Notes: generated from the letters alone by a model not told the origin. Positions 5,847 to 62,038 are shown, counted from the stretch's first letter. The stretch is DNA of 64,000 nucleotides from an uncultured Bacillota bacterium (GCA_937975235.1 CALJUZ010000064.1:9306-73305), one strand, 5' to 3'. Numbers and translations are program-made.

Positions 5847-7514
5847 TTACACTTCCATGACGATGGGCAAAATGATGGGCCGCCGCTTGGTGCGCTCGTA
5901 AAGGAAACGGCTCAGCGCATCGCGCATGTTGTTTTTCAGCACGTTCCACTGCGTGATTTGACGCTCGCTCATTTCGGCCAGCGTTTCCTGCAGCCGCACG
6001 CGCGCTTCCTCCAGCAGCTCCTCCGATTCCCGAATGTAGACGAAGCCCCGGGAGACGATGTCCGGCCCCGCCACCACCGCGCCGGTGCGCTTGTCGATGG
6101 TGACGACCGCGATCAAAATGCCGTCCTGGGACAGCTGGCGCCGATCCCGCAGCACCACGTTGCCCACGTCGCCCACGCCCAGGCCGTCCACGAACACCTG
6201 CCCCGAAGGCACCCGCCCGGTGACGGCCGCGGTGCCGTCGGCCCGAAACTCCAGCACGTCGCCGATGTCCAGCAGGAACACGTTTTCCTCGGGCACGCCC
6301 ACGGACATGGCCAGCTGCGCGTGCTGCCACAGCATGCGGTATTCGCCGTGAATCGGGATAAAATATTTCGGCCGGCACAAGTTGAGCATCCACTTGAGCT
6401 CCTCCTGGGCGGCGTGGCCCGACACGTGCACGCCCTGAGCCTCACCGTGGACCACCTGCGCGCCCAGCTTGTAGAGCTGGTTGACGGTGCGGCCCACCAG
6501 CCGCTCGTTGCCCGGAATGGGATGCGCGGAGATGATGACCGTGTCGCCCGGCACGATCCGGATCTGACGGTGCTCGGAAGCGGCCATCCGCGACAGGGCC
6601 GCCATGGGCTCGCCCTGGCTGCCGGTGCTCAGCACCACCACCCGGTCCGGCGGGTAGTCGTCCACCTCCGCCACGTCAATAAGCATGCTTTCGGGGAACT
6701 TCAGATACCCCAGCTCCGAGGCGATGCGCACCACGTTGACCATGCTGCGGCCCACGACGCACACTTTCCGCCGCACCGCCGCCGCGGCGTCAAACACTTG
6801 CTGGATGCGGTGCACGTTGGAAGCGAACGTGGCCACCACGATGCGGCCTTTCGCGTTGCGGAAAATGTCCGAGAACCCTTCGCCCACGATGCGCTCCGAC
6901 GGCGTGTAGCCGGGCTTCTCCGCGTTGGTCGAGTCGGAGAACAACGCCAGCACGCCCCGCGCGCCCAGCTGCCCCAGCCGCTGCACGTCGGTGGGCCGCC
7001 CGTCGATGGGCGTGTGGTCGAACTTGAAGTCCGTGGCGAAAACGATGACGCCCGCGGACGTGTCCACCGCCAGCGCGACGACGCCGGGGATGCTGTGATT
7101 GACGTGGATGAGCTCGATGCGCAGCTTGCCGGCCCGGATCCGGTCCCCGGCCCGCACCTCCTTCATCTCCACGCCGTTGATCTCGTGCTCCTGCAGCCGG
7201 GCCCGCACCAGGCCCAGCGTCATGCGGGTGCCGTACACCGGCACGGGCACTTCTTTGAGCAAATACGGCAGGGCGCCGATGTGGTCTTCGTGGCCGTGGG
7301 TGAGCAGCACGGCCCGCACCTTGTCCTTGTTCTCTTTCAAATACGAAATGTCGGGAATGACCAGGTCGACGCCCAGCAAATCTTCCTCGGGAAACATAAC
7401 GCCCGCGTCGACGACGACGATGTCGTCGGGCGTCTCGATGAGCCACATATTTTTTCCGACTTCGCCCAGGCCGCCCAAAGGGATGACGGCGACGGCGTTT
7501 TCCGATACAGGCAT
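5847..7514 (-). CDS. rnj: ribonuclease J
   Basis: 555 aa with beta-lactamase/beta-CASP signature (VIPLGGLGEVGKNM...LLTHGHEDHIGALPYLL...HVSGHA). Confidence 0.95.
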   Translation of the reverse strand: MPVSENAVAVIPLGGLGEVGKNMWLIETPDDIVVVDAGVMFPEEDLLGVDLVIPDISYLKENKDKVRAVLLTHGHEDHIGALPYLLKEVPVPVYGTRMTLGLVRARLQEHEINGVEMKEVRAGDRIRAGKLRIELIHVNHSIPGVVALAVDTSAGVIVFATDFKFDHTPIDGRPTDVQRLGQLGARGVLALFSDSTNAEKPGYTPSERIVGEGFSDIFRNAKGRIVVATFASNVHRIQQVFDAAAAVRRKVCVVGRSMVNVVRIASELGYLKFPESMLIDVAEVDDYPPDRVVVLSTGSQGEPMAALSRMAASEHRQIRIVPGDTVIISAHPIPGNERLVGRTVNQLYKLGAQVVHGEAQGVHVSGHAAQEELKWMLNLCRPKYFIPIHGEYRMLWQHAQLAMSVGVPEENVFLLDIGDVLEFRADGTAAVTGRVPSGQVFVDGLGVGDVGNVVLRDRRQLSQDGILIAVVTIDKRTGAVVAGPDIVSRGFVYIRESEELLEEARVRLQETLAEMSERQITQWNVLKNNMRDALSRFLYERTKRRPIILPIVMEV

Positions 7515-7530: not shown

Positions 7531-8412
7531 CTAGCTCAAAAGGCCGCTCTCCTTGAGAACGGTTCGTATCGCGTTGAGTTCTTCCTCCGTGGGCTCGCGC
7601 AGCGGCGGCCGCACCGGCCCCGCCTCCAGCCCCATCAAGTTGACGGCGGCTTTCACCGGGATGGGATTCGTGGTGACGAACATCGCTTTGAAAATCGGCC
7701 AAAGCTCCATGTTGATGGCCGCGGCGGTGCGGTGATCACCCTTTTGAAACGCCTCAATCATGGCCCGCAGGCGGCGTCCCACCAAGTGCCCGGCCACGCT
7801 CACCACCCCCGCGCCGCCCACGGCCAGAATGGGCAGCGTCAGCGCGTCGTCGCCGCTGTAGATAAGAAAATCCTCGGGCGTCCGCCGCCGCAGCTCGGAC
7901 ACGTACGCGAGGTCGCCCGAGGAGTCTTTGATGGCCGCCACGTTGTCGATTTCCGCCAGCCGCGCCACCGTCTCCGGCGCCAGCCCCGCGCCCGTGCGGG
8001 ACGGGATGTTGTACAGCATCACGGGCAGGGACGTGCTCTCGGCGATAGCCTTAAAGTGCTCGTACAGCCCTTCCTGGGGCGGGCGGTTGTAGTACGGCAC
8101 GACGGCCATGATCGCGTCGACCCCCAGCTTCTCCGCTTCCTTCGTCAGCTCCACGCTGTGCCGCGTGTCGTTGGTGCCGGTGCCCGCCACCACCGTGGCC
8201 CGGCCCCCCACCTCGCTCACCACGGCGCGAAACAGTTCCAGCTTTTCTTCATCGGTCAGCGTCGGCGACTCGCCGGTGGTGCCGGCGACGACGACGCCTT
8301 CGTTGCCGATGTCCACCAGGTGCCGGGCCAGGCGGGCCGCCTGCACGGCGTCCAGCGCTCCGTCCGGCTTGAAGGGCGTTACCATGGCCGTCAGCAAGCT
8401 ACCCAGCTTCAT
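7531..8412 (-). CDS. dapA: 4-hydroxy-tetrahydrodipicolinate synthase
   Basis: From ATG 8412: MKLGSLLTAMVTPFKPDGALD...VVVAGTTGESPTLTDEEK...YYNRP...LYNIPSRTG. The upstream part of ORF 7531..8733 is an artefact overlapping dapG. Confidence 0.95.
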   Translation of the reverse strand: MKLGSLLTAMVTPFKPDGALDAVQAARLARHLVDIGNEGVVVAGTTGESPTLTDEEKLELFRAVVSEVGGRATVVAGTGTNDTRHSVELTKEAEKLGVDAIMAVVPYYNRPPQEGLYEHFKAIAESTSLPVMLYNIPSRTGAGLAPETVARLAEIDNVAAIKDSSGDLAYVSELRRRTPEDFLIYSGDDALTLPILAVGGAGVVSVAGHLVGRRLRAMIEAFQKGDHRTAAAINMELWPIFKAMFVTTNPIPVKAAVNLMGLEAGPVRPPLREPTEEELNAIRTVLKESGLLS

Positions 8413-9661
8413 GGACCGTCGCCTCCCGTTGTCCTTCTGCGACCCCGAGACCGAACTCGTCGTGCAGCGCCTGCACGACGCGCGGCACGTCCTCCGCCGG
8501 CACCAGGCACGCGATGCTGGCGTGGGAGTCGGCCGTAGCCAAAAGCTCCGTGCCGGCCGCGTCCAGCGCCCGCATGACCCGAGCCATGACGCCCGGCACG
8601 CCGTGCATCCCGGCGCCGACGACGGACACTTTCGCCAGCCCGTCGCGCACGGTGTAGCGCAGGCCCGCGGCCTCCAGCACCCCCTCGGTCTTCCGCCGGT
8701 CGGCGGCCGCGACGATGAAGCCGACGCCCGCATCGGACACGTCGATCATGTCCACGCTGACCCTCCGGGCGCCCAGGGCCTCGAACAGCGCCAGCGTGCG
8801 CGCGCCCGCGCCCCCCTCGTCCAGGGCCGGCAGGCGGAACCGGACCCGCCGCGGGACGTGGGCGACGCCGGTGACGACCCGGTCCAGCTCCAGCGCCGAG
8901 CCCCGGCCGGCGGCCCCGTCGGTCACCAGGGTGCCGGGCGAGGAGCCGTCCGCCGCCAGAATGCGCAGCGGGATGCGCCCTTCCATCGCGATCTCCACGG
9001 CCCGCGGGTGGACGACGTTGGCGCCCGAGTGGGCCAGCTCCGCGACCTCCCGGTACGCCACCCGCTTCAGCAGCACCGCGTCCGGCACCAGGCGCGGATC
9101 CGCGGTGAACACCCCCGGCACGTCCTTGAAAATGTCTATGCGCTCGGCGCCGAGGGCCACGCCCAGCACGGCGGCCGTCGTGTCGCTGCCGCCGCGGCCC
9201 AGGGTGGTGACGTGGCCGTCTTCGGTCACGCCCTGGAATCCCGCGACGACGGCCACCCGCCCTTTCCGCAAGTGGGCCAGCACCGGCTCGGGCTCGGCCC
9301 GCAGCACGCGCGCGCTCCCGAAATTGTCGTCGGTAATGATGCCCGCCTCGCGGCCGGTCAGCGCCGCCGCGGGCACGCCTTCGGCCCGCAGAGTGTGGGC
9401 CAGCACGACGCAGGCGATGATCTCCCCGCAGGCGGCCAGCAGATCCCGCTCCCGCGGGTCCGCCTCGGCGCCGCCGTCATCGCCCAGCAAGCCCAGCAGC
9501 GTGTCCGTCGCGTACGGATCCCCCGCCCGGCCCATGGCCGACACCACGGCCACCACGTGCAGCCCTTCCGCCAGCGCCTCGCGAATGCGCGCCGTGACGT
9601 TTCGCCGAGCCGCCGGCGTCACCACCGACGTTCCGCCGAACTTTTGCACGACGATGCGCAC
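8399..9661 (-). CDS. dapG: aspartate kinase (DapG-type)
   Basis: MRIVVQKFGGTSV...VVSAMG...TTLGRGGSDTTA plus C-terminal ACT domains. 14-nt overlap with dapA. Confidence 0.95.
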   Translation of the reverse strand: MRIVVQKFGGTSVVTPAARRNVTARIREALAEGLHVVAVVSAMGRAGDPYATDTLLGLLGDDGGAEADPRERDLLAACGEIIACVVLAHTLRAEGVPAAALTGREAGIITDDNFGSARVLRAEPEPVLAHLRKGRVAVVAGFQGVTEDGHVTTLGRGGSDTTAAVLGVALGAERIDIFKDVPGVFTADPRLVPDAVLLKRVAYREVAELAHSGANVVHPRAVEIAMEGRIPLRILAADGSSPGTLVTDGAAGRGSALELDRVVTGVAHVPRRVRFRLPALDEGGAGARTLALFEALGARRVSVDMIDVSDAGVGFIVAAADRRKTEGVLEAAGLRYTVRDGLAKVSVVGAGMHGVPGVMARVMRALDAAGTELLATADSHASIACLVPAEDVPRVVQALHDEFGLGVAEGQREATVHEAG

Positions 9662-14219: not shown

Positions 14220-14337
14220 GGGCCCACGGCTCCTCCCCGGCGGAAGCGGCCGTGCGCGCCGCCTTTCCGCGCCCGTCAGTGTCCCTTATCCAGCGTATGC
14301 GCCGGGGCCCGGCCTAGAAGTCCGGAAGTCCCCGCGC

Positions 14338-15741
14338 CTAGAAGACGACGCGCACGCCCGCGGCCCAACCCGGAGGCCGGTTCCAGCCCACGTCCAGGCG
14401 GCCCTGATCCGGCTCCATCCACTGCAGCCACACCTGACCGAAACCGGGCACGTCGCGGGTGATCGACGCGTGGAACCAGCTGACGACGCCGCGATCCGAG
14501 TACGTGCGCTGCTTGACCACCAAGGCCGCGCTCCACGGGGCGTCGGGCGTCCACCGCCACTCCAGGCGCCAGCCGGGCAGCCGATCGTCCGCGGACAGCC
14601 GCACCCGCCACGCGCCGTCGTCCCACGTCATGGACGCGCGCCGCCTGGGCACGCCGCCGGCCGGGACGGTCAGCGAAAGGGATTGCTCGAAGCGGCGGTC
14701 CGGATTCGTCAAGGTGAACGTGACGCCGTGCTCGGCAGCCGCGCCGTCCACCCAGGCCGTCTCCGCATCCACCCGCCAGCCCCAGCGGCCCCAGGACATG
14801 GAGGAAAATCCGGCCTCCAGCACCGCGTAGTCCGGGGCGTTCACGGGCAGCCGGCGCTGGGCGTAGACGCTCAGCAAGCGGCCGGTGGCCGGCCGCCACT
14901 GCCAGCGGCCTTCCGCCGCCGCGGCGCCCCGGCGAAACGGGTAGTCTGACGCGGCCAGCGACCGGAAGCCCGGCGACGTGTCGTGCAGCAGCAGCCAGAC
15001 GCGGTGACGGCCGAAGGACGTCTCCGTCCGCACGAAGGCGGCCCGCTCGCTGACCTGGCTGAAGCCGGACGCCCCCGAAACTTCGACGCCCGTCTGCCGG
15101 GCCGCTCCCCAGCGCCACCGCCACCGGCCCGCGGACCACTCGCCGTCCAAGGCGACGAACTCATGCCTCAGGCGGCTCGTTCCGTACGCCAGGGCCGTCA
15201 GCCGCACGGCGGGCTCGAAGGGAGCCTGAACCTGTCCGTACAGCAGCGGTCCGCTCGCACCCCGCAGCGGCACCGCGCTGACGTACTGAACCACGGCCGG
15301 AACGGGACCGTCCCAGCCCGCGGCCACCGCGGCCGAAGTCGGAGCGTGCACCGACCCGTGGACGAGCCGGAACGGGTCGTCCGACGAGCGGTGCCTTTCA
15401 TGAAGGTACACGTTCAGTGAGAAGGAAGCGCGCGTCAGCGACACCACCGCGCCCCAGGAGGACGGCCCGCCTTGGGGCAGCGTGTGCCGCAGCGAGACCG
15501 AACCGGCGCCCGGCACGCCGTGCGCTTCGGAAAGGTCTGCAGAATGTCCGCCCGCGGACGGGGCGGTTTTCTCTAGAAAGAGGAAAAGCGGCAAATGCAG
15601 CCGCTGCTCGACGGCGGCGGCCCAATCGTCCGTCCGGACGGACACGCTGGCTTCATACTCCGCCTGCTGCGCGAGGGCCGCCGACGCCCACGCCGCGACG
15701 ATGACCAGCGGGCCGACGACGCCCGCGAGAAACCGGCGCAC
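14338..15741 (-). CDS. secreted hypothetical protein with beta-barrel-like C terminus
   Basis: Start set at GTG 15741, 6 nt after GGAGAGGTG, giving the signal peptide MRRFLAGVVGPLVIVAAWASAALA|QQ. The mature part is Trp/Arg/Ser-rich with alternating hydrophobicity and ends ...GWAAGVRVVF. I recognise no family. Confidence 0.7.
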   Translation of the reverse strand: MRRFLAGVVGPLVIVAAWASAALAQQAEYEASVSVRTDDWAAAVEQRLHLPLFLFLEKTAPSAGGHSADLSEAHGVPGAGSVSLRHTLPQGGPSSWGAVVSLTRASFSLNVYLHERHRSSDDPFRLVHGSVHAPTSAAVAAGWDGPVPAVVQYVSAVPLRGASGPLLYGQVQAPFEPAVRLTALAYGTSRLRHEFVALDGEWSAGRWRWRWGAARQTGVEVSGASGFSQVSERAAFVRTETSFGRHRVWLLLHDTSPGFRSLAASDYPFRRGAAAAEGRWQWRPATGRLLSVYAQRRLPVNAPDYAVLEAGFSSMSWGRWGWRVDAETAWVDGAAAEHGVTFTLTNPDRRFEQSLSLTVPAGGVPRRRASMTWDDGAWRVRLSADDRLPGWRLEWRWTPDAPWSAALVVKQRTYSDRGVVSWFHASITRDVPGFGQVWLQWMEPDQGRLDVGWNRPPGWAAGVRVVF

Positions 15742-15813
15742 ACCCGTCACCTCTCCGGCCCAGGGGACGGTCGGCACGTGTGTCCACCATGCTAGCAAGG
15801 ACGCCGCCGCGTG

Positions 15814-16290
15814 TCAACGTCCGACGCCCGTGGAGCCGAACCCGCCTTCGCCCCGCTCCGACGGCGGCAGCTCGTCGGTCTCCTCCCACGTCACCGCCAC
15901 CACCGGCACCACCACCAGCTGCGCGACGCGGTCGCCGTCCCGGACGACGAAGGGCTCGCGGCCGCTGTTTTGCAGCGCGACTTTGATTTCGCCCCGGTAG
16001 TCGCTGTCAACGACCCCTACGCCGTTGGCCAGCGAGATGCCGTGGCGGGACGCGAGGCCGCTGCGGGCGAAGATGAGCGCAACCAGGTGCGGCCCGGGCA
16101 GGGCGATGGCGATGCCCGTCGGCACCAGGGCCCGCTGGCCCGGCAAAAGCTCCAGCGGCTCATCCAACGCCGCGGTCAGATCCATGCCCGCCGCGCCGGG
16201 CGTTTCGTAGGCCGGCAGCGGCCTTTCGCCCCCGCCCCGCAGGCGCTTGACTTTCACCGCGGCCGCAAGGCGCGCCAGCTGTGCCTTCAT
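15814..16290 (-). CDS. dut: dUTP diphosphatase
   Basis: AAGMDL...ARSGLASRHGISLANGVGVVDSDYRGEI...GDRVAQLV...RGEGGFGSTG. Confidence 0.95.
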   Translation of the reverse strand: MKAQLARLAAAVKVKRLRGGGERPLPAYETPGAAGMDLTAALDEPLELLPGQRALVPTGIAIALPGPHLVALIFARSGLASRHGISLANGVGVVDSDYRGEIKVALQNSGREPFVVRDGDRVAQLVVVPVVAVTWEETDELPPSERGEGGFGSTGVGR

Positions 16291-31808: not shown

Positions 31809-32473
31809 GACGTTCGGCCTCGCTTTGCGTTGTTGTTGCTTTGTCCCCGACGGGCGTTGCCGTTTTTTCGCCCGCGGCCGCGACGGGAACCGCCGGCGAA
31901 GCGGATGCCCGTCACCCGGCCGATCACGTGCAGGACCCGCCCCGACCACAGGACGATTTCGGTGCGCCGCTCAAACGCGATCGTCTTGGCGTACGCTTTC
32001 CCTCCCACGGCCAACGCGGCGATGACCGCGATGAGAAGAGTCGACAAGATCGTTTCGTTGAGGCCGGGATACGCGGTGACCAGGCGGAACACGATGGTGG
32101 CGCCGATGGCGCCGCTGAGGGTTCCCACCACGTCGCCCACGATGTCCAGCGTGAAGCTGGCCACCTGGTCTTGATGGCGCACCAGCCAGCTGGCTTCCCG
32201 CGCGCCGGGAACGCGCTGCACCGCCATCGCGTGGAACGGATCCTCGCGCGACGCGGTGGTGGCAACGCCAATCAGGTCAAACAGGATGCCGACGGCGACA
32301 ATGACCAGCAGAAGAAGAAAACTCGTGAAAAGGTCAAGCCAGGCCAGAAGACCGGTGCTCAGAAGGGAGAAGACGATGGAAGTGAAAAACGTCAGTATGC
32401 CGACGCGCCAAAAGCGACTCAGTTTTGCTGTCCACCGTCCGTGTGAAAAAAGAGGTGGCAAGTGGCCACGCAC
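31805..32473 (-). CDS. oapA: four-TM membrane protein with basic C-terminal tail, OapA-like (OLE-associated protein A candidate)
   Basis: Four hydrophobic helices (ILTFFTSIVFSLLSTGLLAWL / FLLLLVIVAVGILFDLIGVA / VASFTLDIVGDVVGTLSGAIGATIVF / ILSTLLIAVIAALAVGG) and an Arg/Gly/Lys/Asn-rich tail. Sits directly 3' of the structured non-coding region. Start unresolved (GTG 32473, TTG 32461 or CTG 32422). Confidence 0.6.
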   Translation of the reverse strand: MRGHLPPLFSHGRWTAKLSRFWRVGILTFFTSIVFSLLSTGLLAWLDLFTSFLLLLVIVAVGILFDLIGVATTASREDPFHAMAVQRVPGAREASWLVRHQDQVASFTLDIVGDVVGTLSGAIGATIVFRLVTAYPGLNETILSTLLIAVIAALAVGGKAYAKTIAFERRTEIVLWSGRVLHVIGRVTGIRFAGGSRRGRGRKNGNARRGQSNNNAKRGRTS

Positions 32474-32474
32474 C

Positions 32475-33081
32475 GGGTAAACCTTGTGGCTTAAGGTCCA
32501 GCAGGATTTCCCAACGCTCCTCCGCAGCGTCGCCGCCGCGGCGGTTTCCCCTTTCCGAGCGCTCTGCCGCGTCACCGCCGGCAGGGCTGGATTACCACTG
32601 AGCACACACCCTAATCCCCGGCGCGCTACCCCGCAGGGAACAGCCTAGGAGTTTTCCTCGGCGACGCTCATCGTCCCCTAGCCTCTTTTGCGCAACAATC
32701 TTCGAGCGGCAACGAACCCGCGGCCGTGGCCTTTGGCCCGCGGGTCTGAACCCGCTCTCCCGACTGCTCCGCTCAAGGCAGGCTACGCTGCACCCAACGC
32801 TCCCCGCACGGCGTGCGTGTCGCATCGAGCTGCAGGTTCTTCCCAAGTCGTAGCGACGGGGCCTCACGACCCGGCCGCCACGCACTTGGGTCTCCGCGGA
32901 AGCAGGGTCAACGCCTGCATGCCGTTGCAGATCGCCCCACTTCCTTAACCCCCAGCAGCAACCCCCGACTGGGCGTCGGGAGCCACCACCAGAGACTTCA
33001 TCGATGTGCCCTGTCCGGATTTTTAGGCCCGGCTTCGGAGACGCGAGCACCGACTAGGATACTGCGCCACTTGCCCTTCGC
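32475..33081 (-). ncRNA. ole: large structured non-coding RNA, OLE (ornate, large, extremophilic) RNA candidate
   Basis: About 600 nt between ispA and the OapA-like gene with no credible ORF. Composition is less GC-rich than the flanks, and many local and nested complementary segments are present. Size, strand and ispA / membrane protein / tlyA-nadK-recN context match what is known for OLE RNA. Ends are approximate. Confidence 0.6.
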
Positions 33082-33087
33082 AACGCC

Positions 33088-40561: not shown

Positions 40562-41230
40562 TTACCTCCCTGACGAAACGCCGTCAACGATAGTCACCGT
40601 CTCCCGCTTCACGCCCGCAATGCGGTGGGTCAGCTCGCCGATGAGCGCGGCCGCGGCCTGGTCCAGCACCGCGTCCACCACCACGTGGGCGCCCGCAGGG
40701 CTCAGCACCGCCACCGCGTCGTACCCGTGGGCCCGGAGCAGCTGTTCGATTTCCAGCTCCCGTGCCTCCAGCTCCCACAGCGCCAGCAGTTCCTCATGGG
40801 CCTCCCGCCGCCGCGCTTCGCCGGCGGCCGGGTCCAGCGCGGCCGCCTGCAGCAGCTCCGCCTGGCGCGAGCGCAGGCGCTCCCGCTCCAGGCGCAGGTC
40901 GTCGAAAGGATGAGACCGCGGCGGCGCGGAGGCAGGGCCTTCGGCCGCGGCCGGCGGCGCCGGCGTCAAGGAGACGGCGGCCGAGTCGTCCGCCGCCGGG
41001 CCCGACGCCGCCGCCGGCACGGCCAGTACGTCCGCGTCCGCCGGGGGCGCGACGGCGTCCGTCGCGGCCGGCCCGGGCGGCGCCTCGCCCTCCGGACGCT
41101 GCTGCCACCACGCGGCCAGCGCCAGGAAACCGACGGCCAGCGCCAGCAGCACCGCTTGCCAGGCGCGCCGGGAAAAGGTGACGAAATACACCCGGCCGCC
41201 GCTGTTTTCGCCTCGCACCGCTGCGTTCAT
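40562..41230 (-). CDS. spoIIIAH: stage III sporulation protein AH
   Basis: N-terminal TM, Pro/Ala-rich linker, C-terminal region ([28 protein letters not shown]) typical of SpoIIIAH. Last gene of the spoIIIA operon. Confidence 0.8.
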
Positions 41231-41303
41231 CGTCCTCGCTCCCTTCCGTTGAACTTCCCCTGCAGCCGTCGGGGCGGGCGCCGTCCCGCCCCTTGATGCG
41301 TCT

Positions 41304-41918
41304 TCACGGCTGCCGCGGCATGACGTACACCCGGTGGGCCGGCAGCCCCAGCAGCGTCATGACCGCGCGCGTGATTTCGTAGCGCCGCCGCGCGTCCCGG
41401 GCCGCATCGGTAATGACCAGCACCCCGGAAACGACGGGGGCGTGTTCCACCAGCACCACCGGTTCCTCCCGGCGCTGCTGGTCGCTGCGCACCAGCACCG
41501 GCTGGGCCGACCGCCGCTCGTCCAGCACGACGTCCCCGGTGCCCGCCGCGCCGGGAGCACCGCCGGTGCGGCGCTCGGTGGTCACGTGCTCCGCCAGCAC
41601 TCGCCGCGGGCCCGTCTCGACGGTGACCGACACGTGCACCGGAGCCGCACCGAAAAGCTGTCCCAGAGCGGCTTCCACCTGTCGCTCCAGCGCCCGCGCG
41701 TAGTCGTCCGCGGCGCCCGCGCCGCGGGCCGCGCCCGCCGCGGGCGCGGCCGGATCCAAGTGCGTTCGCTGGCCCACGTCCCCGGTCGGCCTCGGTCCAA
41801 ACGTCAAGAGCACCACGCCTGCTGCCAGCAAAATCAGCAGGTGGCCGAGATAACGGCGCTGCCCGTCGCTCAGCCGCCAGCGCCGCGCCCATCCGCGCAG
41901 GGGCTCCCGTTCCGTCAC
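41304..41918 (-). CDS. spoIIIAG: stage III sporulation protein AG
   Basis: TM anchor plus YARALERQVEAALGQL...VHVSVTVETG...SGVLVITDAARDARRRYEITRAVMTLLGLPAHRVYV. GTGA overlap with spoIIIAF. Confidence 0.85.
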   Translation of the reverse strand: MTEREPLRGWARRWRLSDGQRRYLGHLLILLAAGVVLLTFGPRPTGDVGQRTHLDPAAPAAGAARGAGAADDYARALERQVEAALGQLFGAAPVHVSVTVETGPRRVLAEHVTTERRTGGAPGAAGTGDVVLDERRSAQPVLVRSDQQRREEPVVLVEHAPVVSGVLVITDAARDARRRYEITRAVMTLLGLPAHRVYVMPRQP

Positions 41919-42442
41919 CGCTGCATGCCTCCTTGCCCACCGTGCTCCGCGGCCCGAACCCGCACCTGTTCGGGCCGGAGGCCGAGGTAGCCGGCGATGA
42001 GCCGGACGGCTCGATCCGCGTCCACGGGCCCGTCCGCCGGCCCGACGGTCGCGTCGATGCCCTCGATGCCGCCGTCGGGCCGCCAGCGCACGTCCAGCTG
42101 CTCGGGCGCCGCGCCCAAGGCTAGCTCCACCACGCCCGCCACGTGCTCGTAGGCCCGCCGCCGGCCCTCCTCCGCCACCCGCTCCAGCGCCCGCCGGGCC
42201 AGGAGCTCGCCCTCGGCCGCCACGTTCTCCGCGCCCTGCGGGAAACCGCCGAACCAGTCCGCGTCACCCGGGTCCCAGCGCAGCAGCTGCAGCGCCGGCG
42301 CCAGCAGCGCGCCGATGACGACCAAGCCCGCCATGAAGCGGACGTAATCCCGCAGCCGGTTTTCCGGCAGGAGCATGTACGCGGCGCTGACGAAAAAGAC
42401 GACGACCACCAAATCCCGCACCCAGCCCGCCAGCCAGCCCAC
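41915..42442 (-). CDS. spoIIIAF: stage III sporulation protein AF
   Basis: WVRDLVVVVFFVSAAYMLLPENRLRDYVRFMAGLVVIGALLAP matches the SpoIIIAF N terminus. GTG start after GGAAGGAGGGA. Confidence 0.8.
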   Translation of the reverse strand: MGWLAGWVRDLVVVVFFVSAAYMLLPENRLRDYVRFMAGLVVIGALLAPALQLLRWDPGDADWFGGFPQGAENVAAEGELLARRALERVAEEGRRRAYEHVAGVVELALGAAPEQLDVRWRPDGGIEGIDATVGPADGPVDADRAVRLIAGYLGLRPEQVRVRAAEHGGQGGMQR

Positions 42443-42463
42443 GCCGCAGTCCCTCCTTCCGCG

Positions 42464-43684
42464 TCAGCGGACCAGCGCCGCCCAGTTGCCGATGCCGACG
42501 ACGACGGTAATGACCACGAAAAACATCAGCGCCGCCGCGGCCACCGCCGCCATGAGCAGCGTCAGCGTCTGGGCCATGGCGCCCAGCGCGTCCACCAGGC
42601 GGGGATCGCTGATGGGCTGCACCACGGCGGTGGCGACGCGGTAGATGATGACCAGGGCGAAGATCTTCATCAGCGGAAAAGCCAGCAGCACCAGCAGCGT
42701 CGCCATGCCGAACGCGCCGACGGCGTTCTTGATGAGCAGCGAGCCGCCCAGGACGACCTCCATCGCGTCGGCCATCATGCCGCCGATGACCGGGATGAAC
42801 GAGCCGGCCAGAAATTTGGTCGTTCTCAGCGCGATGCCGTCGGCCACCGGCGCGATGGCGCCCCGGATAACCATGACGCCCAGAAACAGCGTCAAAAACA
42901 GCCCCAGGGCCGTCGTCGCGGCCTGCCGGAGCAAATCGGCGATGCGAGAGACGGGAAACCCGGCCGCGACGCGGCCCACCACCCCGAGCACCGCCGCGAA
43001 AAACAGCAGCGGAAACACGACTTGTTCGATCAAGCTGGCCACCAGCGTCACCACCGTCAGGAGCAGCGGATGAAACAGGGCGGCGCTGGAGACCGCGCCC
43101 ACCGCGGCCAGCATGGTGGACAGCAGGGGCAGCAGCGCCAGCATAAAGGCGCTCATGTCGGCCAGGACGCCCCGCCCCACCTCCGCCGCCGCGGAGAAGC
43201 TTTGCAGCGCGACGAAGATGATGACCATGTACGCGACCAGAAATCCGAACTCCGTGGCCGCCGGCGAAAAGGAGCCGGCCGCGTTGTGCAGCAAGGCGCA
43301 CAAGACGGCCAGCACGATGAGCTGTCCCAGCAGGCGGGACTGCAGCAGCACCTCGGCCAGCAAAAACCGCGTCAGCTCCCGGAGCAGCTCCGCCGGGTGC
43401 AGCCGCAGGCCGCCTTGCGGGTCCACGATGACGTCGCGGACGCTGCGGGCAGGCAGCCGTTCCCGGACGTCGTCGTCCAGCCCCGCCAAAATCTCCTCCA
43501 GCGGCCGCAGGTCTAGGTGGCGCACTTGCTCGTCCACCGCCGCCTGCAGCGGATCCAGCGAGTCCGCCGGGCCGGCCGCGGGCATTTTCACCGGCACTGC
43601 GGCCGCGGGCCCGGGCGTCCAAAGGGCCGCCGTCACCACCAGCAGCGCTGACGCGACGACGATGCCCCTCCGCCTCCTCTGCAC
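42464..43684 (-). CDS. spoIIIAE: stage III sporulation protein AE
   Basis: 406 aa polytopic membrane protein with signal sequence, in position five of the spoIIIA operon. Confidence 0.9.
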   Translation of the reverse strand: MQRRRRGIVVASALLVVTAALWTPGPAAAVPVKMPAAGPADSLDPLQAAVDEQVRHLDLRPLEEILAGLDDDVRERLPARSVRDVIVDPQGGLRLHPAELLRELTRFLLAEVLLQSRLLGQLIVLAVLCALLHNAAGSFSPAATEFGFLVAYMVIIFVALQSFSAAAEVGRGVLADMSAFMLALLPLLSTMLAAVGAVSSAALFHPLLLTVVTLVASLIEQVVFPLLFFAAVLGVVGRVAAGFPVSRIADLLRQAATTALGLFLTLFLGVMVIRGAIAPVADGIALRTTKFLAGSFIPVIGGMMADAMEVVLGGSLLIKNAVGAFGMATLLVLLAFPLMKIFALVIIYRVATAVVQPISDPRLVDALGAMAQTLTLLMAAVAAAALMFFVVITVVVGIGNWAALVR

Positions 43685-43735
43685 CCGGCTTCGCCTCCGT
43701 TTCGCCCCGGCCGTGGCGAAGGCCCTGTCCGCCGC

Positions 43736-44125
43736 TCAGGGCAGAATGCGCAGCAACGTGTCCAAAATACCCGTCAGCACCGGCAGCGCCAGCAGCGCGA
43801 TGATGATTTTGCCCGCCAGCTCGATGACCCCGCCCAGCGCCTCCTCCTTGGCGTCGCGGCAAACCTGGGCCCCGAAGGAGGCCACGTACGCCACGCCGAT
43901 GACGCGCAGCACCGCGTCCACGTAGGCCGTATTCACCTGCGCGCGCCTCCCCAGGTCCGCGAAGGCGCTGACAATGCGTTCCAGGGAAGGCGCCAGCAGA
44001 AGCAGCACGCCCGCGACGAAGGCCGCCATCAGCTGCACGGCCACCGCGGGATACCGCTCCCGTAGCACGACCAGCACCACCGCGGTCACCACCGCGGCGC
44101 CGACGATGCGGGCCAGTTCCGGCAT
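43736..44125 (-). CDS. spoIIIAD: stage III sporulation protein AD
   Basis: From ATG 44125: MPELARIVGAAVVTAVVLVVLRE...VIGVAYVASFGAQVCRDAKEEALGGVIELAGKIIIALLALPVL. Confidence 0.9.
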   Translation of the reverse strand: MPELARIVGAAVVTAVVLVVLRERYPAVAVQLMAAFVAGVLLLLAPSLERIVSAFADLGRRAQVNTAYVDAVLRVIGVAYVASFGAQVCRDAKEEALGGVIELAGKIIIALLALPVLTGILDTLLRILP

Positions 44126-44129
44126 GGAA

Positions 44130-44327
44130 TCACCACCAGCGGAAGACCGTCTCCACGTCACGGAACAGCTGCGCGATGAGCTGAATGAGCCAGAGCAGCA
44201 CGATGACGACCCCGGCCAGGCTCAGCATCTGCGCCTGCTCCTGGCGGCCGGCCTGGGACAAGAAGATGTTCAAAATCGCGATGATGATGCCCAAACCCGC
44301 AATCTGGTAAATCATCGTGATGTCCAA
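44130..44327 (-). CDS. spoIIIAC: stage III sporulation protein AC
   Basis: 65 aa tail of the artefactual ORF 44130..46025: LDITMIYQIAGLGIIIAILNIFLSQAGRQEQAQMLSLAGVVIVLLWLIQLIAQLF. TTG 44327 lies 8 nt after GGAGGTG. Confidence 0.85.
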   Translation of the reverse strand: MDITMIYQIAGLGIIIAILNIFLSQAGRQEQAQMLSLAGVVIVLLWLIQLIAQLFRDVETVFRWW

Positions 44328-44344
44328 CGCCGGCGCACCTCCCG

Positions 44345-44863
44345 TCAGGCCAGCGCGATGACCAGCAGACCGCCGACGCACACGCCCAGCCAGCGCCACA
44401 GCCGGGCCTGCACCGCCGCCTCGGCCTCCGCCTCCTGCTGCTGACGGGCCAGGCGGGCCAGCGCCAGACGCAGGTGCCGTTCCTGGTCCGCGGCGGACGT
44501 GCGGCCGAGATACGGCGCCAAGTCCAGGAGCGCTTCCTCGTCGGCCGCGGTCAGGCACCAGCGCCGGCGCTGGGACAGCAGGGCCCGCCGCCACGCCTCC
44601 GGCGCCGGCAGCGGCCGCCGGCGTGCCAGCAGCGCCGCGGCCTCGGCGAAAAACGGCGCCACGGCCGGCGCGGTCCTTCGGCCCACCCGTTCCAGCGCCT
44701 CGGGCAGCGGCGTCGCGCCGTACACGATTTCCGTATGCAGCATGGTCAGCGCCGTCTGCAGGCCGGCCAGGATCGCGGGCCGTTGGCTGTACGAGCCGGC
44801 CACCACGAAGCCCGCAGCGCCCGCCGCGACCAGAATCAGCGCCGCGCCGAGCCAGCTCCCCAC
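44345..44863 (-). CDS. spoIIIAB: stage III sporulation protein AB
   Basis: 172 aa: ILVAAGAAGFVVAGSYSQRPAILAGLQTALTMLHTEIVYGATPLPEAL is the SpoIIIAB pattern. Confidence 0.85.
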   Translation of the reverse strand: MGSWLGAALILVAAGAAGFVVAGSYSQRPAILAGLQTALTMLHTEIVYGATPLPEALERVGRRTAPAVAPFFAEAAALLARRRPLPAPEAWRRALLSQRRRWCLTAADEEALLDLAPYLGRTSAADQERHLRLALARLARQQQEAEAEAAVQARLWRWLGVCVGGLLVIALA

Positions 44864-44944
44864 GAAGGCGCCCCCTTCCGCCCGGACGTTTGTCCACCAC
44901 GTGCCGCCGGGCCCGTGCCCGCGGGGCCGGCGCGCCGCAGCCCG

Positions 44945-45967
44945 TCAGCGTATGTGTACGGACGCGGCCGCGGGGATATGACCGCCCCCGCGTGGGGACG
45001 GCGGGGCGGTCACCGCTTTCACCGTCCCAGGCTGGTCCGGGCCGCCCAGCACGGCCAGCAGCTCGAACAGGCACGGGTTCAGGAGAGCCTGCAGCCCCGG
45101 CCGCCGCACCACGTCCTCCCAGCCGGCGCCGTGGGCGGACGCGATGACGGCAACGCCCGCGTGGGCGGCCTCGAACAGCGCGGCCGCGTCTTCGGGCCCT
45201 CCGATCTCGTCGGTGACGATAACCCGGGGCGACATGGTCCGCAGCGCCTGCATGACGCCCGCCGCCTTGGGGCAGCCGTCCACCACGTCGGTGCACGGCC
45301 CCACGTCCAGCTGGGGCACGCCCCGCACGCACGCCGCGATTTCCGACCGCTCGTCGACGACGCACACGGGCAGGCGGGCGCCCAGCCGGCGGGCGATGTC
45401 TCGGAGCACCGTGGTCTTGCCGCCCCCCGGCGGCGAGATGACCAGGGTGTGGCGGGGCCGTCCCGGGCCGCGCGCGATGTGAGGCACGATGCGCTCCGCG
45501 GCCCCCGGCACTTCGCGAGCGATGCGCAGGTTGAAGGAGCCCACGTGGCGCAAGGTGCGGGGTCGGCCGCCCTCCAGCGCCGTTTCGCCGCACAAGCCGA
45601 CGCGGTGGCCGCCCGGCAGCGTGATGTAGCCGTGCCGAAATTCCTCTTCCAGCGCGTACACCGACGAGCGGCTGATCCTCTCCAAAAACTCCCCGGCGTC
45701 GGCCGGCGCGAACGTCTCGGCCGCGTCCGGCACGGCCAGCGCCCCGCCGCGCCCGACAAACAGCTGCCCCCGGCCCCGGACGGTGACCGCCAGCGGGCGC
45801 CCGACCCGCAGCCGGATTTCCAGGAGACCGGTCAGCGCGTCTTCGGGCAGCAGCTGAAACAGAGGCTTGAGCCTTTCGGGCAGAAACGCCAGCGCGCCCG
45901 CGACGCCCCGCAGCTCCCCGCCCGCCCGCGCCTTCCCGCCCGCCTCCCGCACCGGCACCGCCGCCAT
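44945..45967 (-). CDS. spoIIIAA: stage III sporulation protein AA (ATPase)
   Basis: 340 aa with Walker A ISPPGGGKTT and VTDEIG Walker B-like segment. ATG preceded by GAGGAGG. Confidence 0.9.
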   Translation of the reverse strand: MAAVPVREAGGKARAGGELRGVAGALAFLPERLKPLFQLLPEDALTGLLEIRLRVGRPLAVTVRGRGQLFVGRGGALAVPDAAETFAPADAGEFLERISRSSVYALEEEFRHGYITLPGGHRVGLCGETALEGGRPRTLRHVGSFNLRIAREVPGAAERIVPHIARGPGRPRHTLVISPPGGGKTTVLRDIARRLGARLPVCVVDERSEIAACVRGVPQLDVGPCTDVVDGCPKAAGVMQALRTMSPRVIVTDEIGGPEDAAALFEAAHAGVAVIASAHGAGWEDVVRRPGLQALLNPCLFELLAVLGGPDQPGTVKAVTAPPSPRGGGHIPAAASVHIR

Positions 45968-60263: not shown

Positions 60264-60292
60264 ATACTAGCACGGAACGAAGGCGCCGTCAA
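60264..60292 (-). promoter_or_regulatory. candidate sigma-A promoter of the cymR-nifS-mnmA operon, with nearby CymR-box-like sequence
   Basis: Minus strand reads TTGACG - 17 nt - TAGTAT. Downstream, TCGGAATTG (60238..60230) resembles the GGAATT core of the B. subtilis CymR box as I recall it. Confidence 0.45.
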
Positions 60293-61686
60293 CGACGGCC
60301 CGCGGCGTCGGGGACCGGGCCGGGCCCGCCGCCCGAGGCGCCGCCCCGTTCCCGCAGCCGCTCCAGGCGCCGGCGGACCGCGGCCTCCTCGCCTTGGTCG
60401 CTGGGCTCGTAAAACGTCCGGCCCGCCACGTTGTCGGGCAAATACTGCTGCGGCACGTAATGGTCCGGATAGTCGTGCGGATATTTGTATCCGGCGCCGT
60501 GGCCCAGCCGTTTCGCGCCGCGGTACGATGTGTCGCGCAAATGGATCGGCACCGGCTCCCACCGCTCGGTGCGCACCGCCTCCAGCGCCCGGTCGATGGC
60601 CAAATACGCGGCGTTGCTCTTGGGCGCCGTCGCGATGTAGATGGCCGCCTGGGCCAGGGGAATCCGGGCCTCGGGCAGTCCCACGTGCTCCACGGCCTGG
60701 GCGGCCGCCACGGCCAGGGGCAGCGCCCTCGGATCCGCGTTGCCCACGTCCTCGGCCGCATGCACGATGAGCCGCCGGGCGATGGCCCGGGGATCCTCCC
60801 CCGCCTCCAGCATCCGGGCCAGCCAGTACACCGCCGCGTCCGGATCGGAGCCCCGCATGCTCTTGATAAAGGCCGACATGGTGTCGTAGTGCGCGTCGCC
60901 GTCCCCGTCGTAGACGATGGCCCGGCTCTGCATGGCCGCCCGCACCGCCTCGGCCGTGACCACGACGGGCCCGCCCGCGGGCCGGCCCTCGATGCGGGCT
61001 TGCGCGGCGGCCACCTCCACCGCGGCCTCCAGCCCGTTCAGCGCGGCGCGCGCGTCGCCGTTGGCGCCCCGGAGCAGCTCCGCGAGGGCGTCCTCCTGCA
61101 GCTCCACGGGCCGCCGGCCCAGGCCCCGCTCCTCATCAAGCAGGGCGCGCCGAATCAGCGTGGTCAGGTGCTCGTCGCTCAAAGCCTGCAGGCGCAGAAG
61201 GCGCGCCCGGGACAGCAAGGGCGCGTTGACGGAAAAGTACGGGTTCTCCGTGGTGGCGCCGATCAAGATGACGGTGCCGTCCTCCACCGCCGGCAGCAGC
61301 GCGTCTTGCTGCGCTTTGTTGAACCGGTGGATTTCGTCGATGAAAAGAATGGTGCGCCGGCCGTGAAACCGCAGGGCGTCTTTGGCCTCTTCGATGACCT
61401 TGCGGACGTCGGCCACGCCGCTGCCCACGGCGTTCAGCTTCGCAAAGCGGGACCTGGTCGTCTGCGCGATCACTTCGGCCAGCGTCGTCTTGCCCGATCC
61501 CGGCGGGCCGAACAAGATCAGCGACGGCAGCCGATCCGACTCGATGGCCACCCGCAAGGGCCGGCCGGGGCCGATGAGTTCCTCCTGGCCCACCACCTCG
61601 TCCAGCGTGCGGGGCCGCATGCGTGTGGCCAGCGGCGCCGACGCGCGGCGCGCCTCCTCGGCCGCCGCGGCAAACAAGTCACCCAT
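60289..61686 (-). CDS. rarA: replication-associated recombination protein A (RarA/MgsA AAA+ ATPase)
   Basis: From ATG 61686: RMRPRTLDEVVGQEEL, LILFGPPGSGKTTLA, LFIDEIHRFNKAQQDALLP, GATTENP, MgsA C-terminal domain (HYD..SAF.KS.RGSDPDAA.YWLARM). Confidence 0.93.
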   Translation of the reverse strand: MGDLFAAAAEEARRASAPLATRMRPRTLDEVVGQEELIGPGRPLRVAIESDRLPSLILFGPPGSGKTTLAEVIAQTTRSRFAKLNAVGSGVADVRKVIEEAKDALRFHGRRTILFIDEIHRFNKAQQDALLPAVEDGTVILIGATTENPYFSVNAPLLSRARLLRLQALSDEHLTTLIRRALLDEERGLGRRPVELQEDALAELLRGANGDARAALNGLEAAVEVAAAQARIEGRPAGGPVVVTAEAVRAAMQSRAIVYDGDGDAHYDTMSAFIKSMRGSDPDAAVYWLARMLEAGEDPRAIARRLIVHAAEDVGNADPRALPLAVAAAQAVEHVGLPEARIPLAQAAIYIATAPKSNAAYLAIDRALEAVRTERWEPVPIHLRDTSYRGAKRLGHGAGYKYPHDYPDHYVPQQYLPDNVAGRTFYEPSDQGEEAAVRRRLERLRERGGASGGGPGPVPDAAGRR

Positions 61687-61779
61687 AGCATCCACCTCGG
61701 TTCCGCCCGTGCGCCTTCCGCGCTCCGGCCGCCGGCGTCCGCTCCGGCGCCGGCCTGGCTTTACCGCCATTATGGCACA

Positions 61780-62002
61780 AAAAAACGGGAGCGTCGCTCC
61801 CGAAGAAGTACCCCGCCATGCCGCTGAACCGACCTTAATGAACCTGCGCTCAAGCAGGTGGGTGTCCTCCTGGGCGCTTGTGAGCTTCCCCGTCAGGCGA
61901 GGCCTGCTCGCCACGCCCAGAGTCCAGACTCCCAATGTAGTAGGTGTTCGGTCATTAATAGGTCCGGTTGCATGGCGCACACAGCAGGGCATGTGTGTCC
62001 GC
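61780..62002 (-). ncRNA. ssrS: 6S RNA-like small RNA
   Basis: Lies in the 431-nt aspS-rarA gap. 5' arm CGCCAUGC-AACCGGACC-..-UUAAUGACC pairs with 3' arm GGUUCAUUAA-GGUCGGUU-..-GCAUGGCG. A large asymmetric internal bubble carries an ACCUGC/GCAGGU hairpin on its 3' side, and there is a distal CUGGGCG/CGCCCAG stem. Ends in CGGGAGC-GAC-GCUCCCG plus seven U. Confidence 0.6.
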
Positions 62003-62008
62003 AACCCG

Positions 62009-62038
62009 ATCATACCACAAGGCCCGCCCGGCCGACAA
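62009..62038 (-). promoter_or_regulatory. candidate sigma-A promoter (extended -10) of the 6S-like RNA
   Basis: Minus strand reads TTGTCG - 18 nt - TATGAT with TGg directly upstream (TGGTATGAT). Confidence 0.45.

Follow-up and report, generated by a model that had tools for sequence, protein, structure and literature searches.

A probable large outer-membrane beta-barrel protein encoded in a sporulation gene neighbourhood of an uncultured Limnochordales-type bacterium

The window analysed here is a stretch of 64,000 nucleotides (nt) from an uncultured Bacillota bacterium (GCA_937975235.1, CALJUZ010000064.1:9306-73305; positions are counted from its first letter). On its minus strand lies a gene for a protein of 467 amino acids (aa), a predicted outer-membrane beta-barrel, which is the subject of this report. 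The gene order around it was found to be M16 peptidase, dUTPase (dut), the barrel gene, a PRC-barrel YlmC/YmxH-like gene, YflT, DapB, DpaA and DpaB, and an earlier note on this DNA, made from the sequence alone, had correctly described this as an mlpA-dut / ylmC sporulation neighbourhood. The features of the gene and its product are as follows.

15817..15789, minus strand: sigma-A (sigma-70)-type promoter, TTGACA-17-TGcTAGCAT, a conserved pattern match.
15735..15788, minus strand: 5' leader with the box GTGCCGaCC and a putative hairpin whose loop would contain the ribosome-binding site and whose stem would contain the start codon, from the leader alignment.
15756..15748, minus strand: ribosome-binding site GGAGAGGTG, 6 nt upstream of the GTG start.
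14338..15741, minus strand: coding sequence of the 467-aa precursor, GTG start at 15741..15739, TAG stop at 14340..14338.
15670..15741, minus strand: Sec-type signal peptide, residues 1-24 (MRR, hydrophobic core, ALA/QQ), read by eye; residues 2-21 are modelled as a helix.
14341..15669, minus strand: mature all-beta region, residues 25-467, a predicted transmembrane beta-barrel of about 26 strands by DSSP.
15334..15402, minus strand: connection between strands 5 and 6, residues 114-136, HExHxxSxDPFRLVHxSVR, recurring in the distant proteins of loci L014 and L015.
14926..14976, minus strand: connection between strands 13 and 14, residues 256-272, TSxGFRSLAAxxYPFRRG, from the family alignments.
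14371..14418, minus strand: connection between strands 25 and 26, residues 442-457, EPDxGRLDVGW, from the family alignment.
14341..14370, minus strand: last strand, with the beta-signal-like ending GWAAGVRVVF, marked by the residues G462, V465 and F467.

The minus-strand open reading frame (ORF) extends over 14338..15798, and the 467-aa protein is encoded by 14338..15741. Because the GC content of the window is 70% and long chance ORFs occur on every strand (for example, one of 945 codons opposite dinG), the coding nature of this ORF needed separate proof. The GC content at codon positions 1, 2 and 3 is 0.71, 0.58 and 0.88, the same pattern as in the flanking genes, and the homologues are conserved at the protein level across genomes of 41-71% GC. 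The GTG start at 15741 agrees with the N-termini of the homologues, which align as MRRxxA, and REJ35063.1, which falls into the 90%-identity cluster of the window protein, is likewise 467 aa long in the NCBI annotation. The ORF is thus a real coding gene and not a chance product of GC-rich DNA. The start that the earlier note had read, 6 nt after the ribosome-binding site, was borne out by the ORF and its translation; the latter begins MRRFLAGVVGPLVIVAAWASAALA/QQ and ends in GVRVVF, so that the AxA signal peptide and the terminal Phe described there can both be read in it. The gene also follows the M16 peptidase and dut, but the 15-nt spacing given in that note fits only the upstream-most TTG at 15798, and 72 nt (15742..15813) separate the GTG start from dut. 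The mature protein is composed of 12.9% A, 10.2% R, 9.7% V, 9.5% G, 9.0% S and 5.6% W, with no Cys, which agrees with the description of a Trp/Arg/Ser/Gly-rich chain.

The ALA/QQ cleavage site follows the -3/-1 Ala rule (judged by eye), and an n-h-c signal-peptide pattern was recognized in all full-length homologues. A Tat signal, which the MRRFLA start might suggest, was considered and rejected, as family members do not conserve the RR pair and an outer-membrane barrel has to be exported unfolded. At the other end of the protein, the terminal residue F467 is invariant in 17 of 17 family sequences and G462 in 13 of 13, and the C-terminal beta-signal pattern G-x-x-hydrophobic-x-aromatic is present as G462-V-R-V465-V-F467. 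The more distant proteins of L014 and L015 likewise terminate in F. For two homologues, P0016 (L011 1037-2362) and P0017 (L012 2420-3697), the database starts lie too far downstream and the signal peptide is missing; when in-frame TTG codons further upstream are taken as starts, an MR...hydrophobic signal peptide reappears and the conserved promoter lies at its usual distance.

A word-indexed search yielded 13 relatives of the barrel protein, and an exhaustive HMMER profile search of 1.84 billion representative proteins yielded 16 at E <= 0.001; a second word-indexed search with a wider profile (A4) added no further members. All family members come from metagenomes or metagenome-assembled genomes (MAGs) of uncultured organisms and are annotated as "hypothetical protein". 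Several of them, including members of the window protein's 90% cluster, are labelled Limnochordales bacterium, and the other genes of the window are 58-87% identical to, and fully collinear with, those of six such MAGs. The window is also dense in sporulation genes (ypeB, spo0A, spoIVB, spoIIIAA-AH and dpaAB). Taken together, the labels, the collinearity and these genes identify the host as a spore-forming, Limnochordales-type bacterium. No Limnochorda protein appeared among the 120 listed relatives of DpaA. Electron microscopy and gene content have both documented the Limnochordia as diderm (PMC11456536; PMC11448272; bioRxiv 10.1101/2021.05.31.446380). The suggestion that the gene hints at a diderm envelope is therefore consistent with the lineage, but it is not new, since the Limnochordia were already known to be diderm.

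The AlphaFold2 model of the window protein, built on a 13-sequence alignment, has a mean predicted local distance difference test score (pLDDT) of 83.9 and a predicted template-modelling score (pTM) of 0.72, with 244 residues at pLDDT >= 90. It consists of the N-terminal signal-peptide helix followed by 26 strands (DSSP) joined by turns mostly of 2-6 residues; apart from residues 55-59 it has no internal helix, as had been foreseen from the lack of internal hydrophobic segments, and the whole chain is made of strands, with no globular N-terminal domain, plug or periplasmic domain. A Foldseek search of the PDB returned 203 matches at E <= 0.001, and all of the best 50 of these 203 are outer-membrane barrels. 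Those listed include PapC/FimD ushers, BtuB, Cir, FecA, MtrB, LptD, OprD/Occ channels and Deinococcus SlpA, at template-modelling (TM) scores of 0.3-0.5 and sequence identities of 7-12%. When normalised to the query, the TM-score is best for MtrB (0.50), followed by FimD (0.47) and LptD (0.46), and the 22-strand BtuB is level with the 26-strand barrels. To judge from the models, this likeness is one of fold class and not of family. By sequence, neither the window protein (E <= 0.1) nor any of the 17 family members (E <= 10) has a Pfam match, the window protein has no NCBIfam match at E <= 10, and a sequence-profile search of the PDB gave a chance match only (E 0.74). The structure-prediction check that the earlier note had proposed thus gave an all-beta model with outer-membrane barrels alone among the matches listed.

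P0025, the most distant member detected by HMMER (22% identical), also gave an all-beta model (pLDDT 63, pTM 0.58). The matches listed for it are outer-membrane barrels only, with Occ channels on top and Veillonella OmpM1 among them. A search of a viral fold library gave the same outer-membrane-barrel picture. In the family-averaged hydrophobicity of the 26 strands, the two faces of the dyad repeat differ by 1.26 kcal/mol, as against 0.62 +/- 0.09 when residues are shuffled within strands, and none of 2000 shuffles reached the observed value; one face is rich in L, V, W and A, and the other in R, G, E, S and T. Dyad amphipathic strands occur in soluble beta-sandwiches too, and with only 13-17 sequences behind the model and the low pLDDT of the second model, the barrel might be an artefact of a shallow alignment and the protein a soluble, beta-rich one, secreted or on the spore surface. 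We regard this as highly improbable, because so much of the first model lies at the highest confidence, the listed matches of both members are all outer-membrane barrels, the aromatic residue at the C-terminus never varies, Trp, Leu and Val abound on the hydrophobic face of a protein free of Cys, and the host lineage is diderm (PMC11456536).

Three long connections, out of 25 between strands, are the most conserved parts of the barrel protein. In the connection between strands 13 and 14 and its border, T255, F259, R260, S261, L262, Y267, P268, R271 and G272 are invariant in the A1 alignment, and T255 and F259 also in A4. In the connection between strands 25 and 26, D445, G447, R448 and W453 are invariant in all 17 sequences, and the L015 version of the motif is YDRGRLDAYW. 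All three come after odd-numbered strands. This parity puts all three on one side, probably the outside; should the N-terminus be periplasmic, as is the case for known outer-membrane proteins, it would be the cell-surface side. Their conservation suggests that these outer loops may fold into or over the lumen as a constriction or gate, in the manner of porin loop 3. The sole long connection from an even to an odd strand (residues 54-78) is variable and has low model confidence.

The transcription signals were assigned by pattern. The -35 hexamer TTGACA overlaps the stop codon of dut, and the extended -10 overlaps the TTG at 15798. The site scores 10 of 12 matches plus the TG, where 0.2 sites are expected in the region, and it is one of just two perfect combinations of -35 and extended -10 in the whole 64-kb window. 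The -35 hexamer and TGnTAnnAT are invariant across six aligned loci whose proteins are about 40% identical, and equivalent sites are found upstream of the barrel gene in L007/L008, L009, L011, L012/L013 and L015; L014 (41% GC) has a poorer match with two mismatches in the -35. A purine-rich, GGAG-like block at the ribosome-binding site is likewise conserved in the aligned leaders.

In the leader, the box GTGCCGaCC is invariant directly after the -10 (leaders of L001-L005 and L015), and the arms of the hairpin differ between loci yet remain complementary (ATGCCCA/TGGGCAT in L001, ATGCTAAA/TTTAGCAT in L015). Pairing of the start codon was seen in 11 of 12 loci, but in this GC-rich DNA 36% of randomly chosen windows and 30% of the starts of other genes are fully paired as well, and with random windows pairing at 36-65% the hairpin is not distinguishable from the background by folding alone. 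Rfam holds no family that matches the leader or the gene region.

A second, conserved element, GCATAnnnT, lies at 14292..14300 on the minus strand, between the barrel gene and the PRC-barrel YmxH/YlmC-like gene, and recurs at this place in L001-L007. The CATAnnnT motif precedes the ymxH-like gene in eight of the nine loci examined and resembles the -10 of mother-cell sigma-E/K promoters, which suggests that this gene has a separate sporulation promoter; a mother-cell role has been reported for YlmC and YmxH (PMC9332280). Ahead of the barrel gene, no promoter of the sporulation type was seen. From these patterns, the barrel gene looks like an independent housekeeping-sigma unit beside a sporulation gene with a promoter of its own, and its sporulation context therefore looks positional rather than functional. 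The spore-surface protein offered as an alternative in the earlier note is not favoured for the same reason, namely that the barrel gene has its own conserved sigma-A-type promoter.

The barrel gene occupies the same slot, between M16 peptidase/(dut) and the YmxH/YlmC-like gene, in 13 of the 13 checkable loci besides the window. The shared order is M16, (dut), barrel, PRC-barrel YmxH/YlmC-like, YflT, DapB, DpaA, DpaB, Asd, LysC, DapA and RNase J. These loci are L001-L006 (L006 begins inside the barrel gene, so that the downstream side alone is visible), L007-L010 with the distant P0023 and P0025, L011-L013 with P0016 and P0017, and L015; they span DpaA identities from 99% to about 45% and barrel identities down to about 22%. 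L015 was reached through relatives of DpaA, and in its slot is a 422-aa gene with no Pfam match that hhalign aligns to the family profile at 97.7% probability (E 1.6e-12). Two other occupants of the slot were not counted among the 13: a 435-aa gene in L014 that has the family motif HLTSKDSFRVL and a terminal Phe, but a weak hhalign match (10% probability), and a 309-aa gene without Pfam match in L018. In L016, from a related MAG (GCA_030019095.1), the barrel and PRC genes are both missing, and a Spo0E-like gene (6186-6365) lies between dut and YflT.

As a monoderm control, Pelotomaculum propionicicum keeps the block pda-M16-dut-PRC-dapB-dpaA-dpaB-asd-lysC-dapA-rnj without the barrel gene, and its slot (L017 3718-4053) contains just a helical membrane protein of 111 aa. 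The possibility that this is a remnant of the barrel was considered and rejected on account of its small size and helical nature. In Bacillus subtilis, mlpA is followed directly by ymxH and spoVFA. The order in these two organisms indicates that the block is ancestral to Firmicutes and that the barrel gene is present only in the lineage described here. The barrel reaches 39-46% identity where the proteins encoded on either side (M16, dut, YlmC to TepA) reach about 58-87%, and about 24% where these reach 45-65%; such faster evolution than that of the neighbours is typical of surface proteins. A tie to protease-associated import through the adjacent M16 peptidase was also considered and rejected, as the peptidase has no signal peptide and corresponds by position to the cytoplasmic MlpA.

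The fixed slot bears directly on whether the barrel serves sporulation or germination, for example in the membrane surrounding the forespore, which later turns into the new outer membrane, or as a conduit during the handling of cortex or dipicolinate. Its position after M16/dut and before the ymxH-like gene, alongside dapB-dpaA-dpaB, in 13 of 13 loci, and the many sporulation genes of the window would fit such a role. However, Pelotomaculum keeps the whole block without the barrel, so that the adjacency reflects a stable block and not a coupling, and the TTGACA-17-TGnTAnnAT promoter belongs to the barrel gene while CATAnnnT stands separately at the ymxH-like gene; we therefore think a sporulation role unlikely. 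A related idea seems equally doubtful to us: that diderm spore-formers have in the barrel an envelope component of their own, retained in the ancestral ylxY-mlpA-ymxH-spoVF block only where the outer membrane has been kept and absent from that block in monoderm relatives, and that it may serve, at germination or around the spore, in building or rebuilding the outer membrane. If it were true, the gene would mark, at the genome level, where Firmicutes have retained or lost the outer membrane, and would offer a way into the study of outer-membrane regeneration in sporulating diderms. The place of the gene in the spoVF/ymxH block is inherited synteny, and the promoter pattern points most likely to a constitutive channel of vegetative cells, either porin-like or a substrate-specific pore, and not to a sporulation protein.

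We treat the gene, the signal-peptide pattern, the fold class, the C-terminal motif, the conservation of the promoter, the narrow distribution and the fixed position as observations. With the models, they make it likely that the gene encodes a Sec-exported, large outer-membrane barrel, probably a channel, of a diderm, spore-forming Limnochordales bacterium. The outer-membrane beta-barrel proposed in the earlier note is supported by the all-beta model of about 26 strands, the barrels that alone make up the listed matches, the invariant terminal Phe, the dyad periodicity and the Limnochordales placement. For the dependence on the beta-barrel assembly machinery (BAM), the topology, the role of the loops and the function as a channel, we infer the following course. 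The gene would be transcribed as a unit of its own from the strong, conserved housekeeping-type promoter; the signal peptide would be cleaved after ALA; the unfolded chain would traverse the periplasm; and BAM would recognise the C-terminal G-V-R-V-V-F strand. The mature 443 residues would then fold in the outer membrane as an antiparallel beta-barrel of about 26 strands, without plug or periplasmic domain, inserted with the Leu/Val/Trp/Ala face to the lipid and the face rich in Arg, Glu, Ser and Thr lining a water-filled lumen. The three conserved long connections would probably shape or gate this channel.

Several points weigh against this reading. Genes for outer-membrane biogenesis were not found within the 64-kb window, and no cultured, microscopy-verified Limnochordia species is among the family members found. 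The closure of the barrel and its exact strand number rest on DSSP and the Foldseek matches, the TM-scores to known barrels, at just 0.3-0.5, express a generic likeness, and the alignment behind the model is shallow (13-17 sequences). In addition, a barrel of about 26 strands without a plug normally needs occlusion, and no occluding partner is encoded near the barrel gene.

The Limnochordia are one of three Firmicute lineages in which the outer membrane has been kept, and they are central to the argument that monoderms arose by its loss. To our knowledge, their outer-membrane protein content is almost entirely uncharacterised. The present gene does not change the picture of the Limnochordia, whose diderm nature is already established. 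The gene is present in single copy, its promoter is strong and conserved, and the barrel evolves fast; its product is a candidate for an abundant outer-membrane protein of the lineage. The fixed slot in a block shared with barrel-less, monoderm spore-formers makes the gene a convenient, synteny-anchored marker for whether the outer membrane is present or has been lost. The barrel, with about 26 predicted strands and possibly no plug, is also a target for structural work.

Other features were recognized elsewhere in the window. A full-length OLE (ornate large extremophilic) RNA (445 bits, model positions 1-616 of 616) lies at 32446..33086 on the minus strand, just downstream of a polyprenyl synthetase gene and xseA/xseB-like genes. 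A 6S RNA (104 bits) at 61806..61993 on the minus strand overlaps the 5' portion of the longest ORF for an MgsA-like AAA ATPase (60289..62013), so that the true start of this ATPase must be further downstream. The longest ORFs of dapA (7531..8733) and aspartokinase (8399..9661), both on the minus strand, overlap by about 335 nt; as the DHDPS domain begins only at residue 110, translation of dapA probably starts well downstream of the first possible start codon. In the spoIIIA operon (40562..45967, minus strand), Pfam matches were obtained for AA, AB, AC/AD, AE, AF and AH, and a 204-aa gene without Pfam match (41304..41918) occupies the position expected of spoIIIAG.

Among known systems, the large barrels of 22-24 strands of BtuB, Cir and FecA and of PapC and FimD are among the best structural matches (TM 0.45-0.49). 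However, the new protein has no plug (PF07715), receptor barrel (PF00593) or TonB box region of the TonB-dependent transporters, and no PF00577 or N- and C-terminal domains of the ushers, and its neighbours are dut, an M16 peptidase and a PRC-barrel gene instead of chaperone and pilin genes. LptD and MtrB, with 26 strands, are similar in predicted strand number (TM 0.46 and 0.50), whereas the new protein lacks a jellyroll, any Pfam match and a nearby LptE- or MtrA-like gene, and has 443 mature residues as against about 650-800. Membership in the LptD family was not supported, as neither PF04453 nor an OstA-type N-terminal domain was found and no lipoprotein gene is adjacent; the same holds for MtrB/PioB, with no PF11854 match and no cytochrome genes in any locus seen.

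These comparisons also bear on whether the barrel is the conduit of a translocation machine, its lumen filled by a partner as in LptD/LptE, MtrB/MtrA or the usher with its plug, and not a channel for free diffusion. The strand number by DSSP, the ranking of MtrB, FimD and LptD among the TM-scores, the lack of a plug in the chain and the general knowledge that barrels this wide are normally occluded all speak for it. Nevertheless, the 17 members gave no LptD, usher, MtrB/PioB or TonB-receptor Pfam match at E <= 10, an N-terminal jellyroll and a periplasmic domain are both missing from the model, none of the loci has a cytochrome, pilus, Lpt or lipoprotein partner gene beside the barrel gene, and BtuB, with 22 strands, reaches scores as high as those of the 26-strand barrels. 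We therefore give the partner-filled conduit a small chance, slightly above that of a role in sporulation, and prefer the channel.

OmpM (Veillonella OmpM1, PDB 8byt/8bym) is likewise a barrel of a diderm Firmicute and a structural match of the P0025 model. It has an N-terminal surface-layer homology (SLH) domain and a coiled-coil stalk and forms trimers (PMC10628300), whereas the new protein has neither an SLH nor any other Pfam domain and a larger predicted barrel; no SLH domain was found in the 17 members (Pfam, E <= 10). The OprD/Occ channels (18 strands) and general porins, which rank high among the Foldseek matches of both models, share with it a signal peptide, a plug-less barrel with short turns on one side and long loops on the opposite one, a charged face towards the lumen and a terminal Phe, but there is no relation in sequence or Pfam, and about 26 strands are predicted as against 16-18. 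In short, the defining features of every named family tested are absent, and the protein represents a new, lineage-restricted family of a well-known kind, in which the long loops, the most variable parts of OprD/Occ channels and porins, are the most conserved.

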